In this document: positions 1,307 to 28,545 of the stretch, piece by piece
How positions within the stretch are numbered: the first letter of the stretch is position 1
Layout of the letters: the number at the start of each line of letters is the position of its first letter
Source: a bacterium
GTDB taxonomy: Bacteria > Patescibacteriota > Doudnabacteria > UBA920
Assembly: GCA_021825655.1 (NCBI GenBank)
Contig: JAKAGU010000001.1
Location: forward strand, 50,358 to 114,357
DNA: 64,000 nt
Direction of reading: 5' to 3'
Notes under the pieces: model-generated
Databases searched by the model: none
What the model saw: only the letters and a program-made list of their open reading frames with translations
What the model was told of the DNA's origin: nothing
Program-made: the position numbers and the translations under genes

Positions 1307-2407
1307 TTAGTTCTTGATGGGCATTACCAAATAAAGATAACTGTCATTGTTTTCAGGGGTAAGCAGGCTGGGAGAACTGTCGTTGGTAACTTTTATAACC
1401 ACGTTTTCAGCAGTCAGGTTAGCCAAGCACTCCAACAGATAGTGAAAGTTCACCATCAGTCCCCCGTTTTGGCCTTCCACCCGCGAAGGCAGCTCCACTA
1501 CGCTTTTCCCCAACTCACCAGACTCGGTGTGCAGAACCAAAGCCTGGGCGCTGCTGTCATACTCAACCTTAACACTGGCGTTGTTTTGGCTAAACACCCC
1601 ACCCGCCCGCAAGCCATTAACCAAAGCCTGGCGGTTGGTGGTAATGGTGGTGGTGAACTCGCTGGGAATAATTTGTTCATAAGGCGGATATTCCCCGTCA
1701 ATTAAGCGGCTGACAATCTGGGTGTTGTTTAAAGTAAAAGAAATCTGGGTCTCGTTTACGGCAATCTGCACCTGGCCTTCTTGGGTACCAATATTCCTGG
1801 ACAGCTCAATGATTGTTTTTTGGGGTAGGATCAAACTGTGCGGTAGGTTGGGGTTTTCGCTTAAATTCAGCTTTTTTTCTGCCAGGCGGTACCGGTCGGT
1901 GGCAGCAATTTTCAAAACACCACCCTCAGTCTTAAACAATACCCCGGAAATTTCCGGCTGGGTTTGGTTGGTAGAAACCGCAAACACCACCTGGGTTAGG
2001 GCCTGCTTCAGCTCTTGGGAGGAAAGGGAGAAGTTTTTTACATTTTCCACCTCTGGTATCAGCGGGAACTCTTCCGCGGGCAAGGTCTTGATGGTGGTGT
2101 GGTAATTTTCTGTTTCCACCGACAACTCTGTTTCTTTGGTTTCAAGGGTAATGTTTTTGTTGGGAAGGCTACCAACCAGGTCACTTAGGGTTTTACAAGC
2201 TACTGTAACAACCCCCTCTTCTTCCACCTTGCACCTCACATAGGTTGTTACCGCAATCTCCAGGTTGGTTGAAGATATTTTCAGCAAGCCATTCTCGGTT
2301 TTTAACAACACGTTGCTTAAAATCGGCAGACTTACACTTGAAGAAATAATTCTTCCCACAGAGACTAAACCGGTTTTTAGGTTTTCCTGGGTGCAGATTA
2401 CTTTCAT
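1307..2407 (-). CDS. dnaN: DNA polymerase III beta sliding clamp
   Basis: 366 aa with beta-clamp fold signatures, in the canonical dnaA-dnaN-recF order. Confidence 0.9.
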   Translation of the reverse strand: MKVICTQENLKTGLVSVGRIISSSVSLPILSNVLLKTENGLLKISSTNLEIAVTTYVRCKVEEEGVVTVACKTLSDLVGSLPNKNITLETKETELSVETENYHTTIKTLPAEEFPLIPEVENVKNFSLSSQELKQALTQVVFAVSTNQTQPEISGVLFKTEGGVLKIAATDRYRLAEKKLNLSENPNLPHSLILPQKTIIELSRNIGTQEGQVQIAVNETQISFTLNNTQIVSRLIDGEYPPYEQIIPSEFTTTITTNRQALVNGLRAGGVFSQNNASVKVEYDSSAQALVLHTESGELGKSVVELPSRVEGQNGGLMVNFHYLLECLANLTAENVVIKVTNDSSPSLLTPENNDSYLYLVMPIKN

Positions 2408-2632: not shown

Positions 2633-3979
2633 CTATATAAACAGTTTATCCAGAATTAAATCCATCTCCTGTTTGAAGCCGTCTTTATCCTTAACTAAAG
2701 TCTCCATTTTTTCTACTGCATGCATTACAGTCGTGTGGTCACGCCCCCCAAAAAAATCACCAATTGAAGGGAAGGAGCTGTCCAGCTCCCGGCGAATAAG
2801 ATACATGGCTATCTGCCTTGGTTTTACAAATTCTTTTTTTCGCGACTGTTTTACCAGGTCTTCCATAGAGATGTTGTAGAATTCGGCGACCACCTCGGCA
2901 ATTTTTTTCGCTGAGGTGACTTTCTTTTTAGCCCCGACAATACTGGCCAAAATCCCTTTAGCCTGCTCCAAAACCAACCCCCGGTTATCCATTTGTTGAT
3001 AAATCGCCAGGCGGTTAAGTGCCCCTTCCAACTCTCGAACGTTATTTTGGATGTTTTCCGCGATATAAAAGAGGATTTCTTCCGGCATCTGCACCCCGCG
3101 TTTTTCCATTTTAGTGCGTAAAATTGCCATGCGGGTTTCGAGATCGGGCGCTTGGATATCCGCAATCATCCCCCACTCAAACCGGGAGATCAGCCGCTGT
3201 TCTATGGCCGGAATTTCTTTCGGCGGCCGGTCGGAGGTGATGATGATTTGCTTTCCGTTGTCGCGTAATTCGTTGAAAGTATGGAAAAATTCTTCCTGGG
3301 TGCCTTCCTTGCCCGCCAAAAATTGGATATCGTCTATAAGCAAAGCATCCACTTCACGGTAGGCTTTTTTAAAATCATCCATGCGCTTCTGGCTGATAGC
3401 GTTAATATAGTCGTTGGTAAATTTTTCACTTGTAACATATAGAATTTTTTTATGGCTGGATTCCAGAATGCGGTGCCCCACAGCCTGCATTAAATGGGTT
3501 TTACCTAAACCCACCCCGCCGTAAATGAAGAGCGGGTTGTATTGCGTGCCCGGATTTTTTGCCACAGCCTGGCTGGCTGCGTGGGCAAGCTCGTTATTTT
3601 TTCCGATTATCAGGGTTTCAAAAGTGTATTTTGGGTTTAAACCAGAGGTAAAAGCCGAGGGTCTCTCCTTGGTAAGGCCGGCACTCTCGGATTTTTTGAA
3701 CATATTGGTTTGCTGGCTGGCCTGTGTTGTGGGTTGGTTGCCAAGTTGGTATCTAATTTCTTTAATCTCTGGGGCAATCCCTTTCAGGCTTTTAAGCATT
3801 TCTTGGTGGTACTTAGCAGAAATCCAGTCGCGGTTGAAAGCGCTGGGTACGCCGATGATGATATGGTCCGCACCTCTTTCTAGGATGAGTGTGTTCTTAA
3901 ACCAGGTATTAAAGTTGGCCTTGCTCAGTGAAACTTCTAGACTGCCTAAGATTGCTTGCCAGAGCTGCTGATTAGTCAT
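2633..3979 (-). CDS. dnaA: Chromosomal replication initiator DnaA
   Basis: 448 aa with AAA+ Walker A ([10 protein letters not shown]) and the C-terminal DnaA DNA-binding signature. Confidence 0.95.
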
Positions 3980-15887: not shown

Positions 15888-17516
15888 TCAGGAATGCGCA
15901 AAAGCTTGGTTGATCTCGGTTTCTTCCCAGCCCGCCCGCTGCAGTTCTTCCCGGATTTGCTGGTCAGTCAGTTCTACATTTCGGGCCTGTGTGATGAAGT
16001 CCACCAAGTGGGGGTGGGGCAGGTTTAAGGATAAGCGGCTCTGGGCATGCAGCTCTGTTTCCGGCAAAGGCAGGGGCGTGCCCGCGGCCTCCATTTTTTT
16101 AAGCAGCTCGTTTTTATGGTCTTCTTCGGCCTGTAGTTCAATTTCCAAAGCTTGGATTTGCTGCTCATCTTTTTTTAGGCGCCGGTAGAGGTGTTCTAAG
16201 GCCAGCAGGGCCAGGAGGATTAAAAGCAGCCGCCCGCCGACTACAAACCAGGTAAAAGCGTCAACCTTTTTGATGCTGGCCCAGAACTGCTGCCCCGCGC
16301 TGTCCAGGGATGTCCCGGCCGCAATTAAGTTTTCGCAGTTGGTGGTGTAATTGTCGAAGATCTTAGTACTGGTAAAATTTGGGTTTAGTTCCGCCGCTGC
16401 ATCAAAACTCTTCATAGCTTTTTGGCACTGCCGGGTGCGATAGTAGCCCGCAGCCTGTCGGAAGATTTCTGCGTACGGCCCTTCCGTATTGTTGACGTTG
16501 TTCTTTGTCAAAAACTCTTTGGCCAGATTAATAGGGATGGCAAAAGCAAAGTTGTCGCCTTTTTGCCTTAAGGCGTCGCCGGTCTGGAACGTAATAATGC
16601 CGATTACCCGGCCGTCTTTGTCCAAGAGGGGGCCGCCCGAAGAACCTTGGGAAATTTTAGCGTCGGTTTGAAAAATTTTAAACTCTTTGCTCTGGGCGAA
16701 CTTCAGCGCGCTGACCAGCCCTTGGGTGAGGGTGGCTTCGAGCGGGCTGCGGCCGTTGACTTCCGCGGTGGACGGAAAACCAAAGACCAGAATTTTATCA
16801 CCCGTGCTTACTTGGTTGCTGTCTCCCAGCAGTAGGGCCGGCAAGTTGCCCGCCTGGATTTTAATCAGGGCAACGTCCTTTTCGTCCGCGGCAAAATTAT
16901 TATTGGCACTGACTATGCTGGCCTCAAAACCGGTTTTCAATAACGAGGTCAGGTATTCCTGGGAGTCCGAGGGGTTGAGCACAGTGAGTTTGCTGACAAT
17001 ATTAAACTGTACCCGGTTTTTTAATGCTGCCAGGGAGTTTTGGTAAAAGTTATTAAAATTGTCAGCGTCTTTAAAATTTTGAAGCAAGGTTTGGTCGTCG
17101 AGACTGCCGAGTTTGGCTTGGAGCGCATTGTTTAAGAGTTCTTCCAAATAGCTTTCTTTAATGCTCTCTTCCGTGGCCACGTGGGCGTTGGTCAAAATAT
17201 AGCCGTCGGGGTTGACTACAAAGCCGCTGCCGCTCAGGTAGACATCAACTTTTTCCGCTTGTTGTGGCTGGTTGTCGGGAAAAACCAAAGCCGCTGCCGC
17301 CAAGTTTATTTCAAAATTCGGCAAAGTAACCTGGCCGCTGGCATGGTTGATAATCCGGACAATGCTCGGCTTGATCATTTGAGCCAGGTCCTGTTGGTCC
17401 AGCGGCTGGGCCGGGCCAGGCGCTTGAGCCTTTAAGCTGAGGTAGGCAGCCAGGCCGCATAAAAAAACGGCAAAAACCGCCACCAAGAATTTGGAATTGT
17501 ATTTTAGTTTCGTCAT
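15888..17516 (-). CDS. Membrane-anchored trypsin-like (S1C, HtrA-like) serine protease with a C-terminal TM helix and cytoplasmic tail
   Basis: Catalytic motifs GYILTNAHV and DAKISQGSSGGPLL. No PDZ domain is apparent. Start placed at the internal ATG (MTKLKYNSKFLVAVFAVFLCG, a signal anchor). The ORF-track extension up to 17738 is antisense to tRNA genes and is rejected. Confidence 0.7.
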   Translation of the reverse strand: MTKLKYNSKFLVAVFAVFLCGLAAYLSLKAQAPGPAQPLDQQDLAQMIKPSIVRIINHASGQVTLPNFEINLAAAALVFPDNQPQQAEKVDVYLSGSGFVVNPDGYILTNAHVATEESIKESYLEELLNNALQAKLGSLDDQTLLQNFKDADNFNNFYQNSLAALKNRVQFNIVSKLTVLNPSDSQEYLTSLLKTGFEASIVSANNNFAADEKDVALIKIQAGNLPALLLGDSNQVSTGDKILVFGFPSTAEVNGRSPLEATLTQGLVSALKFAQSKEFKIFQTDAKISQGSSGGPLLDKDGRVIGIITFQTGDALRQKGDNFAFAIPINLAKEFLTKNNVNNTEGPYAEIFRQAAGYYRTRQCQKAMKSFDAAAELNPNFTSTKIFDNYTTNCENLIAAGTSLDSAGQQFWASIKKVDAFTWFVVGGRLLLILLALLALEHLYRRLKKDEQQIQALEIELQAEEDHKNELLKKMEAAGTPLPLPETELHAQSRLSLNLPHPHLVDFITQARNVELTDQQIREELQRAGWEETEINQAFAHS

Positions 17517-17621
17517 GTTTTCTTTTTTGCAGTGTAACATAAAGCTGTAGAAAAAGCATCCCGGGGGGCGTTGAAAAAGCCCGCTAAATAAACTATAATA
17601 AGGTGAGCCAGAAAATTTTCG

Positions 17622-17690
17622 GGCGTAAGCTTGGGTTGGTAGAGCGGACGTCTTATACACGTCTGGTCCTAGGCCCGCCCCGTCACCCTT
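17622..17690 (+). pseudogene. Truncated or degenerate copy of tRNA-Ile(UAU): 5' two-thirds retained, no T-arm or acceptor 3' strand
   Basis: About 36 nt (ggttggtagagcggacgtcttatacacgtctggtcc) are identical to the downstream tRNA, and the flanking 5' portion is similar. The 3' part diverges (ctaggcccgccccgtcaccc) and cannot form a T-arm. Confidence 0.5.
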
Positions 17691-17698
17691 TAGTAAAT

Positions 17699-17774
17699 GC
17701 GCGCGTAGCTCAGTTGGTAGAGCGGACGTCTTATACACGTCTGGTCCCAGGTTCGAGTCCTGGCGCGCGCACCA
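17699..17774 (+). tRNA. tRNA-Ile (anticodon UAU), CCA encoded
   Basis: Folded by hand: acceptor gcgcgcg/cgcgcgc, D-arm gctc-agttggta-gagc, anticodon stem gacgt/acgtc, loop cTTATac (U33, anticodon TAT, A37), T-arm ccagg-ttcgagt-cctgg, then ACCA. Confidence 0.8.
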
Positions 17775-26252: not shown

Positions 26253-26954
26253 TTATTTAATAGCCAGTTCCGGAAAAGTGGTTAAGGCTTCGGCCGGAGC
26301 TTGGGTGTTGTTCTGGGCCGCCAAAGCGAGTTTCTCGTTTTGGGCTTCAGAAGTAAGCACCATTAATTCAGCGTATTTCTGTTTGGCTCCGTACACCCAG
26401 GCGGCTGAACCGGGCTGTACGTATACGCCCCTCATTTTTTCAAAAGTGGCGTATTTATCTTTGTAGATGGGCTTTTCCAGCAATTGGCACATGTCTTTAA
26501 ACCACTCTAATTTGCTGGAATATTTGCGCCAGGACGGATGCCCCGGCTCCACGCCAATGCCGCTGCAGTTATTGTCTGCGCAGTAACGGCCGAAATTGCT
26601 TTCGACCCAGGAAACCGCTAGCGCTCTCTGCCACTGGGGCTGCTGGATAATCTCGTTTGAGTACTGGGCCAGCGGCGAGTCGTGTTCTTCCAGGTAAGCC
26701 TTTAACTTAATGGCAAGCGGGTCAGTGGAGGTAATTTGCTCAAAAGCAATGGAATTTTGGTTTTCAGTCTGATTGGCTGATAGTTTTGAAGAATCGTTGA
26801 TTTCAAAAACTAGAGCGCCATTTTCCCTATTGACCGGACCTTCTGCGGCTAAAGTGATTTCAGGATAAATCGCAGGGGTCAGCGCAACCAGTGCCACAAG
26901 AACTGACAAAACGTGCTGGTTGCAGGCGGCCTTGAGGGCTAAAAGAGCTTTCAT
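26253..26954 (-). CDS. Hypothetical secreted protein (signal peptide, Cys-containing domain)
   Basis: 233 aa with an N-terminal signal sequence (MKALLALKAACNQHVLSVLVALVAL) and a conserved-looking WVESNFGRYCADNNCSGIG segment. Preceded by a roughly 350 nt structured leader. Confidence 0.5.
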   Translation of the reverse strand: MKALLALKAACNQHVLSVLVALVALTPAIYPEITLAAEGPVNRENGALVFEINDSSKLSANQTENQNSIAFEQITSTDPLAIKLKAYLEEHDSPLAQYSNEIIQQPQWQRALAVSWVESNFGRYCADNNCSGIGVEPGHPSWRKYSSKLEWFKDMCQLLEKPIYKDKYATFEKMRGVYVQPGSAAWVYGAKQKYAELMVLTSEAQNEKLALAAQNNTQAPAEALTTFPELAIK

Positions 26955-27343: not shown

Positions 27344-28225
27344 TCAAACTTTTTCGCCCCGCAAGGCTCGATAGAGCACGTAGCCGTAAACGAGCGTGAG
27401 CGGAGTGAGTACAAAAGATATAAGATTGCTTAATAAAGGGATAAATGAGGTGATAATTGCGATTCCGTAAACTATGACCCCGATCAAAAGGTACTTTTTA
27501 AACACCTCCCATAACCTGCCTTGGACATAGGCTTTGCTTTTTTTAAGCGCAACCGTGTTGTAAAGGTTTTCGCAGATCACGACAAACATTGCCTGGCTGA
27601 ACCAGAGGGCAAAAAGTATGCCCGGAATGATAAAAAGTATCATGCCGCCGGCGATTGCCAGTCCAGCTAGCAGGCTGGTGGTGAAGAAAGTGCCCAAGTG
27701 GGGTTGGGCCCGTTTAAAGGCTTCCTGGAAAGTCAGGTTTTCCTGATGGTCTTTTATTACGAAAATTTGGGCCACCGAGCTCCAGACTCCGAAATAAACC
27801 AGCACGACCAACATTATCAGAAGCAGGATAGCGCCGGTGCCAACAGAGGTAAAAAAGCCGCCATGGCCGGTTCTGGTCAGGAACACTCCTCCGCCGAACA
27901 GCAGGCCGAAAACCAGCATGATGGCCCCAGGCACCGCAGTGATGCCCAAAAGCAACCAGAATTTTTCCTGGTAAATTTTCCAGGCAGTTTTAAGGATTTC
28001 CGTGGCCGGGGGGAGGGCCGCTTCTCCGGCCGGGCCAGCAGGAGCTGCGCCCAGACCCAGCTGGATGTCGGCTTCTTGCCAACCGGACTGTCTTAAGGCT
28101 TGGGCAATTTGTTCGCTGGTTTTGCCCGCCTGTTGTTGCCGCTTGATGTAATCAAGCATTTCCGGGGTTGTCATTTTAGTTTCGTTAAAGATAACTTTGT
28201 TCCAGTATAGCATTTTAACCAACAA
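27344..28225 (-). CDS. Hypothetical polytopic membrane protein with an N-terminal cytoplasmic ~35-aa GW-motif domain
   Basis: 293 aa. The likely true start is an internal ATG (MTTPEMLDYIKRQQQAGKTSEQIAQALRQSGWQEADIQ), followed by 5-6 TM helices. The N-terminal domain is homologous to the C-terminal tail of the protease at 15888..17516. Confidence 0.5.
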   Translation of the reverse strand: MLVKMLYWNKVIFNETKMTTPEMLDYIKRQQQAGKTSEQIAQALRQSGWQEADIQLGLGAAPAGPAGEAALPPATEILKTAWKIYQEKFWLLLGITAVPGAIMLVFGLLFGGGVFLTRTGHGGFFTSVGTGAILLLIMLVVLVYFGVWSSVAQIFVIKDHQENLTFQEAFKRAQPHLGTFFTTSLLAGLAIAGGMILFIIPGILFALWFSQAMFVVICENLYNTVALKKSKAYVQGRLWEVFKKYLLIGVIVYGIAIITSFIPLLSNLISFVLTPLTLVYGYVLYRALRGEKV

Positions 28226-28254: not shown

Positions 28255-28328
28255 TGGAGCGGCTAAGGGGAATCGAACCCCTATCCTCTCCATGGCAAGG
28301 AGAAGTTCTACCATTGAACCATAGCCGC
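28255..28328 (-). tRNA. tRNA-Gly (anticodon GCC)
   Basis: Reverse complement folds as acceptor gcggcta/tagccgc, anticodon stem tctcc/ggaga with loop tTGCCat, T-arm agggg-ttcgatt-cccct, then TCCA. Confidence 0.85.
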
Positions 28329-28367
28329 AAGTAGAAAAATTATATCAAACGTACTGATTTTTTCAAA

Positions 28368-28442
28368 TGGTGCCTCGGGTCAGAATCGAACTGACGACGC
28401 CAGCCTCTTCAGGGCTGCGCTCTGCCACTGAGCTACCGAGGC
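28368..28442 (-). tRNA. tRNA-Phe (anticodon GAA)
   Basis: Reverse complement folds as acceptor gcctcgg/ccgaggc, D-arm gctc-agtggca-gagc, anticodon stem cagcc/ggctg with loop cTGAAga, T-arm gtcag-ttcgatt-ctgac, then ACCA. Confidence 0.85.
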
Positions 28443-28468
28443 GCAATAGTATTTGTGTAAGTTTACAC

Positions 28469-28545
28469 TGGTGGGCGGTATAGGATTCGAACCTATGACC
28501 TCCTCGGTGTAAACGAGGCGCTCTAACCAGCTGAGCTAACCGCCC
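28469..28545 (-). tRNA. tRNA-Val (anticodon UAC)
   Basis: Reverse complement folds as acceptor gggcggt/accgccc, D-arm gctc-agctggtta-gagc, anticodon stem cctcg/cgagg with loop tTTACac, T-arm atagg-ttcgaat-cctat, then ACCA. Confidence 0.85.

Follow-up and report, generated by a model that had tools for sequence, protein, structure and literature searches.

Two otherwise unrelated membrane proteins encoded in a 64-kb window of a Patescibacteriota genome (contig JAKAGU010000001.1; the window is the whole stretch of DNA that was analysed, and all positions are counted within it) carry copies of one small three-helix domain, here called the GW domain. The last ~44 residues of an HtrA-like serine protease without a PDZ domain and the first ~44 residues of a polytopic membrane protein are two copies of this domain (Table 1). 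We show that it is an autonomous and widespread domain, tethered via a flexible linker to the predicted cytoplasmic end of membrane proteins. The family is large and uncurated, is absent from Pfam and NCBIfam, and represents a known, RecX-like fold in a new context.

A preliminary description of this DNA, made from the sequence alone, had noted that the two membrane proteins share a conserved segment that aligns without gaps, and our comparisons confirm this. The ungapped alignment of the protease tail (...PHLVDFITQARNVELTDQQIREELQRAGWEETEINQAFAHS) with the N-terminus of the membrane protein (MTTPEMLDYIKRQQQAGKTSEQIAQALRQSGWQEADIQLGL) has 11 identities and 23 positives in 34 positions, and BLASTP of the two segments, as a single comparison, gave an E-value of 1e-8. 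A hidden Markov model (HMM) was built without any protease sequence, from the N-terminal domains of the window membrane protein and nine orthologues (ten in all). When the window was cut into 1190 six-frame pieces, this model matched the protease tail with an E-value of 1.5e-5, and the runner-up had an E-value of 0.6. A second HMM, built from 101 family members from elsewhere and including neither window sequence, gave 44.3 bits for the protease tail (E = 7e-13) and 63.5 bits for the N-terminal copy. The similarity is thus significant in profile searches, which had been proposed as a check. No third copy of the domain was found in the 64-kb window. The segment in the protease had been placed at 15888-16010, which corresponds to the stop codon and the last 40 residues; the full domain occupies about 15891-16022, and the open reading frame (ORF) ends with ...LPHPHLVDFITQARNVELTDQQIREELQRAGWEETEINQAFAHS and the stop codon.

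An exhaustive HMMER search with a 12-sequence profile against 1.84 billion cluster representatives gave 5108 proteins with E-values up to 1e-3, 273 of them at E <= 1e-10, and with lengths from 58 to 5173 residues. A word-indexed homologue search with the 47-residue domain or an 11-sequence profile, using an index that needs several shared 5-mers, returned none or one protein. The consensus of the domain is M-x-N-Q-Q-L-L-D-Y-I-K-Q-Q-x3-G-x-S-x-E-x-I-x3-L-x3-G-W-x3-D-I-x-E-A-F. According to the column statistics of 103 members, Y9, G17, I23, L27, G31, and W32 are each conserved in at least 90%, and D8, K11, Q12, E21, D36, I37, and F41 are strongly preferred.

AlphaFold2, given two small alignments (one per copy), predicted helices at domain positions 4-15, 20-29, and 34-43 in the protease copy, with a predicted local distance difference test (pLDDT) score of 91.1, and at positions 4-15, 20-30, and 34-43 in the N-terminal copy (pLDDT 85.6). 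In these models the domain is a compact three-helix bundle with the fold of a RecX repeat. The preliminary description had named low-complexity coiled coil as the finding that would speak against a discrete domain; what the models have is a compact helix-loop-helix-loop-helix bundle. Together with the thousands of homologues, this predicted fold bears out the view of a discrete conserved domain in otherwise unrelated membrane proteins. The turn pattern of a classical helix-turn-helix (HTH) is seen in helix 2, the G-W turn, and helix 3, and thus W32 would belong to the core and would not serve as a ligand. In the protease copy, Glu replaces the loop-1 glycine G17, which is present in 95% of the family (residues 515-517 of the protease, 15965-15973 of the window); despite this substitution, the copy still reaches 44 bits and a pLDDT of 91.

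The architecture statistics were taken from the best 149 of the 5108 matches. In 117 of the 149, one copy lies at the extreme N-terminus (residues 1-43), and in 97 of these 117 N-terminal carriers the domain is followed by a hydrophobic segment. The linker between the N-terminal domain and the transmembrane (TM) helix has a median length of 30 residues in the family and is rich in P, S, A, and T. All but one of the N-terminal carriers with no following hydrophobic segment are at most 117 residues long, and these short proteins are probably fragments. The remaining carriers among the best 149 have 2-7 tandem copies and are of two kinds. The first kind, typical of the candidate phyla radiation (CPR), has two or more copies at the N-terminus; the second consists of large proteins that start with a signal or TM segment and continue with a big ectodomain, a single TM helix, and a C-terminal repeat tail. 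The window protease has the topology of these large C-terminal-tail carriers, with one copy. Polytopic partners of the domain found with Pfam are UPF0259/GPDPase_memb, RDD, DUF2339, DUF2157, and DUF4190. The distant trypsin-domain relatives of the protease in soil metagenomes (loci L064-L094) lack the tail. The N-terminal domain of the window membrane protein is kept in its orthologues down to 38% overall identity, and it is entirely lacking in homologues that have this membrane core but are more distant (P0017, P0019-P0025). The suggestion of the preliminary description that the module links the two proteins to each other is not supported: because thousands of different proteins carry this domain (5108 cluster representatives), its presence in both indicates no specific relation between the protease and the membrane protein.

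Charge distribution and partner domains place the GW domain on the cytoplasmic side. When K and R were counted on either side of the best 19-residue core of the first TM helix, the flank towards the domain had 2.92 on average, compared with 1.31 for the opposite flank (n = 102, Wilcoxon p = 9e-13). For C-terminal copies, the K + R count was 2.69 on the tail side versus 1.69 on the ectodomain side. The domains found beyond the TM helix are Beta_helix, NosD, Big (Ig-like), PGF-pre-PGF, PsbP_2, DcrB, LpqN, BNR/Sortilin, and TSP3, all of which we take to be extracytoplasmic families. Because the positive-inside counts for both N- and C-terminal copies and the types of ectodomain agree, the domain is predicted to lie in the cytoplasm, as the preliminary description had assumed for both proteins. 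It had also put the domain next to a TM helix; the domain is indeed on the same side, but it is tethered 55 residues away in the protease and ~26 residues away in the membrane protein, and is not directly adjacent. The mean net charge of the domain is -2.2, and helix 3 has the conserved acidic residues D36 and E39. Since the domain, including the would-be recognition helix, is acidic, DNA binding is unlikely.

The earlier statement that the domain cannot be assigned to a named family stands. When 142 full-length carriers were compared with Pfam-A (2025), no family occurred in more than 11 of them, and that one was the UPF0259 membrane core. For 103 isolated domains at E <= 1, only sub-threshold Pfam matches, to small helical modules, were obtained (DUF494/Smg 46, RepB_primase_C 40, RPA_C 16, and RecX_HTH1 15), and NCBIfam (2026) likewise gave sub-threshold matches only. 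The cut-off was passed only by multi-copy proteins in which partial matches add up, namely for RecX_HTH1 (two proteins), RepB_primase_C, DUF494, and DUF7626. A search of the full-text literature, including the consensus peptide, found no description of the domain.

Among known families, the RecX repeats (RecX_HTH1/2/3, PF21982/PF02631/PF21981; PDB 3c1d, 3dfg, and 3e3v) have the three-helix repeat fold in common with the domain. RecX_HTH1 scored 13.6 bits for the protease tail, below its cut-off of 26, and 15 of the 103 members match it at E < 1. In an hhalign comparison with Escherichia coli RecX, the sequence of which had been checked against PDB 3c1d, the family profile aligned in register on repeat 2 with a pairwise E-value of 6e-4 and a probability of 28%, the template being a single sequence. 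RecX is a soluble basic protein with three repeats that binds RecA filaments. In contrast, the GW domain is acidic, usually single, and membrane-tethered; in place of the three tandem repeats of soluble RecX, the window proteins have single copies tethered to TM helices. The N-terminal domain of Pex14 (PF04695; PDB 3ff5, 2w84, and 5aon), a eukaryotic peroxisomal protein, is a three-helix bundle that binds WxxxF/Y peptides. There was no significant Pfam match to it, with 3 of the 103 members giving weak matches (best E = 0.021).

The N-terminal region of DUF494 (Smg; PF04361, NF002897) has the motif L-x3-G-[FW]-x3-D-I in common with the domain, and DUF494 was the most frequent weak match (46 of 103 members at E < 1). 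For the isolated domain of the protease tail, the score was 17.4-17.5 bits, below the cut-off of 22.6, over positions 15-43 of the 153 profile positions. Only the three-repeat protein P0035 exceeded the cut-off, with a summed partial match of 25.6 bits. As Smg is soluble and without known function, this match explains nothing about the domain. The Ltp-type HTH repeat (PDB 4eqq) belongs to phage superinfection-exclusion lipoproteins that are extracellular by description, whereas the GW domain is predicted to be cytoplasmic; the Ltp family was not among the families listed in the Pfam scans of the carriers and isolated domains. UBA-like families (PF00627 and relatives) gave a few sub-threshold matches among the 103 isolated domains. 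Zinc ribbons and similar modules form the cytoplasmic heads of RDD/DUF4190-type membrane proteins, and the GW domain takes the same slot, as a short cytoplasmic module followed by a linker. In its case, what follows is RDD, DUF4190, DUF2339, or a TM helix with a PsbP/DcrB-like ectodomain. However, the GW domain differs from zinc ribbons in being all-alpha and in having no metal ligands. The Listeria-type GW cell-wall-binding module is an SH3-like beta domain of about 80 residues that is extracellular. We rejected it as a relative: the present domain is all-alpha, has 44 residues, and is predicted to be cytoplasmic, and no GW family appeared in the Pfam scan listings. The common 'GW' dipeptide is a coincidence of naming. 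Profile matches in PDB (5cwb, 8cws, 8cwy, and 8vl3) were also rejected as homologues, since these are de novo designed helical repeats and the rest is weak noise. The designed repeats (such as EIVEALKRSGTSEDEIAE) were the only significant PDB sequence matches, and the natural domain closely resembles an idealized designed helix-loop-helix in the part made up of helix 2, the turn, and helix 3.

The taxonomic picture is a sample, as it was obtained by scanning 185,579 species-representative genomes for a single pattern, NQQLLDYI, which represents one subfamily. This pattern was taken from a narrower alignment, as the diverse 78-sequence alignment had no sufficiently conserved stretch. Sixty loci were confirmed, nearly all in Patescibacteria/CPR and one in an archaeon. 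The CPR lineages are Roizman-, Falkow-, Nomura-, Wildermuth-, Uhr-, Kaiser-, Adler-, Yanofsky-, Ames-, Komeili-, Veblen-, Taga-, and Buchananbacteria, Saccharibacteria, Paceibacteria, and Minisyncoccia. A source name was available for five proteins with C-terminal tandem copies, and in every case it was Woesearchaeota or Nanoarchaeota (DPANN archaea). Carrier genes are usually solitary in their loci, and one metagenome-assembled genome gave two contigs. On a Veblenbacteria contig (L016), two adjacent genes (516-1325 and 1712-2392, plus strand) both start with the domain, the sole such case among the 60 loci. Eight loci (L009, L022, L030, L031, L036, L015, L023, and L060) are labelled as Gammaproteobacteria, Spirochaetia, Melioribacter, or Trueperaceae, L060 being a weak partial match only. 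These labels may reflect mislabelled or contaminated bins, or a real spread beyond CPR. The scan of viral contigs gave no confirmed match to the domain.

As for its function, the GW domain may be a cytoplasmic module for protein-protein docking or oligomerization, a reading that we consider plausible but that could equally well prove wrong. The domain would associate with further copies of itself or with a cytoplasmic partner common to the carriers, and the surface proteins to which it is attached would thereby be positioned, clustered, or regulated. In the window, the protease and the polytopic protein might be tethered to the same class of cytoplasmic partner, with no mutual interaction implied. 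This role is suggested because the domain is acidic and occurs on many unrelated ectodomains and polytopic cores, and because its structural neighbours, RecX, the Pex14 N-terminal domain, and the TfuB1 RRE, are three-helix units that bind proteins or peptides. The Pex14 domain, which docks peptide motifs beside a TM helix, offers a functional analogy. Furthermore, promiscuous small cytoplasmic domains on bitopic proteins generally recruit or cluster, which also points to docking or oligomerization.

Several observations weigh against this role. What speaks for docking is solely fold analogy and architecture, and no recurrent partner gene was found in the gene neighbourhoods of carriers. The tie to RecX consists of similarity in fold and weak sequence signals (an hhalign probability of 28%), and because these signals are weak, an analogy with the filament binding of RecX would be tentative. 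The charge bias depends on the TM boundaries, as a cruder count with merged TM windows showed no bias of K + R. In addition, a domain that sits on many proteins could instead fix topology, act as a spacer, or control stability.

One alternative is that the copies pack against each other like the three repeats of RecX and form dimers or a rod-like tail, so that the domain serves for homotypic clustering or as a rigid spacer with no separate partner. However, in the majority of carriers there is just one copy, held by a long flexible linker, and we regard this possibility as unlikely, though not markedly so. Another explanation, which seems to us rather unlikely, is that the domain determines topology or insertion. 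A fast-folding acidic N-terminal domain would keep the N-terminus inside or be recognized by a targeting factor, and the following signal anchor would then insert with the N-terminus in and the C-terminus out. The start of the domain at Met1 in 117 of the 149 top matches, with a signal-anchor-like TM helix ~30 residues on, and the strong conservation of residues 3-13 right from the N-terminus are consistent with this explanation. However, the domain is also found in C-terminal tails beyond the last TM helix, among them that of the window protease, and in arrays of 2-7 copies; because of their position, the C-terminal and tandem copies cannot be N-terminal insertion signals.

A membrane-tethered HTH that binds nucleic acids, like ToxR or CadC, or that takes part in signalling of the anti-sigma type, is in our opinion very improbable. 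Although the classical HTH turn pattern is present in helix 2, the G-W turn, and helix 3, weak sub-threshold matches to HTH_33, MerR, RPA_C, RepB_primase_C, and RecX were seen, and the order of N-terminal domain, TM helix, and variable ectodomain resembles that of one-component membrane sensors, the domain has a mean net charge of -2.2 and an acidic helix in the place of a recognition helix. In addition, no sigma factor or regulated operon lies beside the window genes or in the related loci, and copies also occur in arrays on giant adhesin-like proteins. On the basis of charge, copy number, and neighbourhood, we rejected the idea of an anti-sigma factor or membrane-bound regulator. Finally, the view that the two segments resemble each other by chance, or as charged helices or coiled coils of a generic kind without domain identity, is refuted and retains next to no probability: although the window pair shares only 11 identities and the only significant PDB sequence matches are designed repeats with idealized helix-loop-helix units, the independent HMMs retrieve each copy, thousands of homologues have the invariant residues Y9, G17, I23, L27, G31, and W32, and the compact fold is predicted with confidence.

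The docking reading can be extended to a more speculative one, which we think improbable: the domain might be a lineage-spanning cytoplasmic address tag of the ultra-small, episymbiotic CPR bacteria and DPANN archaea that couples surface proteins to one conserved intracellular partner. Such a partner might be, for example, a filament-forming ATPase, by analogy with RecX and RecA, and the carriers would be proteases, adhesin-like giants, and polytopic proteins. If true, this would be a previously unrecognized system that organizes the cell surface from inside. CPR bacteria and DPANN archaea are widely held to make up a large and poorly characterized share of microbial diversity, and attachment to host cells is commonly ascribed to their surface and membrane proteins. 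A compact domain that labels the predicted cytoplasmic end of thousands of their membrane proteins is a new family for curation. As a mark of the cytoplasmic side, it allows simple prediction of the topology of its carriers, and it provides a single bait for a cytoplasmic partner that may organize the cell surface. If that partner is conserved, the domain would open a way to study many hypothetical proteins that have little else in common.

Table 1. Positions in the window of the two genes with a GW domain and of their parts (TM, transmembrane; ORF, open reading frame)
Feature	Position	Strand	Basis
Gene of PDZ-less HtrA-like trypsin-like serine protease, membrane-anchored, 542 aa	15888..17516	-	ORF list and public gene call of identical product
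N-terminal signal anchor, protease residues 6-32	17421..17501	-	Hydropathy scan
Trypsin_2 catalytic domain, protease residues 96-307, predicted extracytoplasmic	16596..17231	-	Pfam PF13365, 97.7 bits, E=1.3e-27
Second TM helix, protease residues 418-444	16185..16265	-	Hydropathy scan
Predicted cytoplasmic linker, charged, probably helical, then Pro-rich, protease residues 445-498	16023..16184	-	Sequence reading only
C-terminal copy of three-helix GW domain, protease residues 499-542	15891..16022	-	
Gene of 276-aa polytopic membrane protein, DUF975/UPF0259/GPDPase_memb-like core	27344..28174	-	ORF list
N-terminal copy of three-helix GW domain, membrane protein residues 1-44	28043..28174	-	
Ala/Pro/Gly-rich linker from N-terminal domain to first TM helix, membrane protein residues 45-70	27965..28042	-	Orthologue alignment (length and sequence variable)

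The protease ORF can be extended to 15888-17738 (minus strand). However, the 5' end of this longer ORF overlaps a tRNA-Ile gene on the opposite strand, and because the tRNA gene occupies this end, we place the start at MTKLKY (17516). This start agrees with a public gene call, the product of which is identical. The signal anchor is preceded by MTKLKYNSK, which has three Lys residues, and the sequence EHLYRRLKKD directly after the second TM helix conforms to the positive-inside rule. The protease has the motifs TNAHV, DVALIKI, and GSSGGPL, which presumably correspond to the surroundings of the catalytic His, Asp, and Ser of trypsin-like proteases. HtrA/DegP (S1C) proteases share the trypsin-fold catalytic domain with the window protease (Table 1). 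Whereas they have one or two C-terminal PDZ domains, the window protease, which gave no Pfam match to PDZ even at E <= 10, instead has a weak TPR-like stretch (a helix pair) between the Trypsin_2 domain and the second TM helix, followed by that helix and the tail. Of the unusual layout given in the preliminary description, the signal anchor, the trypsin domain, the lack of a PDZ match, the second TM helix, and the tail are thus retained.

The membrane protein has four hydrophobic blocks within residues 71-263, according to the hydropathy scan. It scored 15.2 bits against GPDPase_memb of Pfam, its orthologue P0012 scored 32.1 bits, and the cut-off is 29.6; precomputed matches to PF06790/PF10110 exist for many of the orthologues. 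In a relative with 57% identity, the synteny of RNHCP, the membrane protein, a 233-residue ORF, and Orn/Arg decarboxylase through to GyrA is kept. The 233-residue ORF lies directly downstream of the membrane protein gene (26253-26954, minus strand) and has no Pfam match; its counterpart in that relative is at 2642-3337 of locus L061. A cluster of Gly, Phe, and Val tRNA genes (28255-28545) is found immediately upstream of the membrane protein gene.

Next to the protease gene, a CofE-like gene (F420-0:gamma-glutamyl ligase, PF01996; 15178-15885, minus strand) starts 2 nt past the protease stop codon, and because of this spacing the two genes are probably co-transcribed. The same gene pair is also adjacent on two public contigs. 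The tRNA-Ile gene directly upstream of the protease gene (17699-17774, plus strand) is one of twelve tRNA genes in the 64-kb window and has the anticodon UAU. An isoleucine tRNA with this anticodon is uncommon in bacteria, where AUA is usually read by a CAU tRNA modified with lysidine, and thus this gene may be informative on AUA decoding in the lineage.

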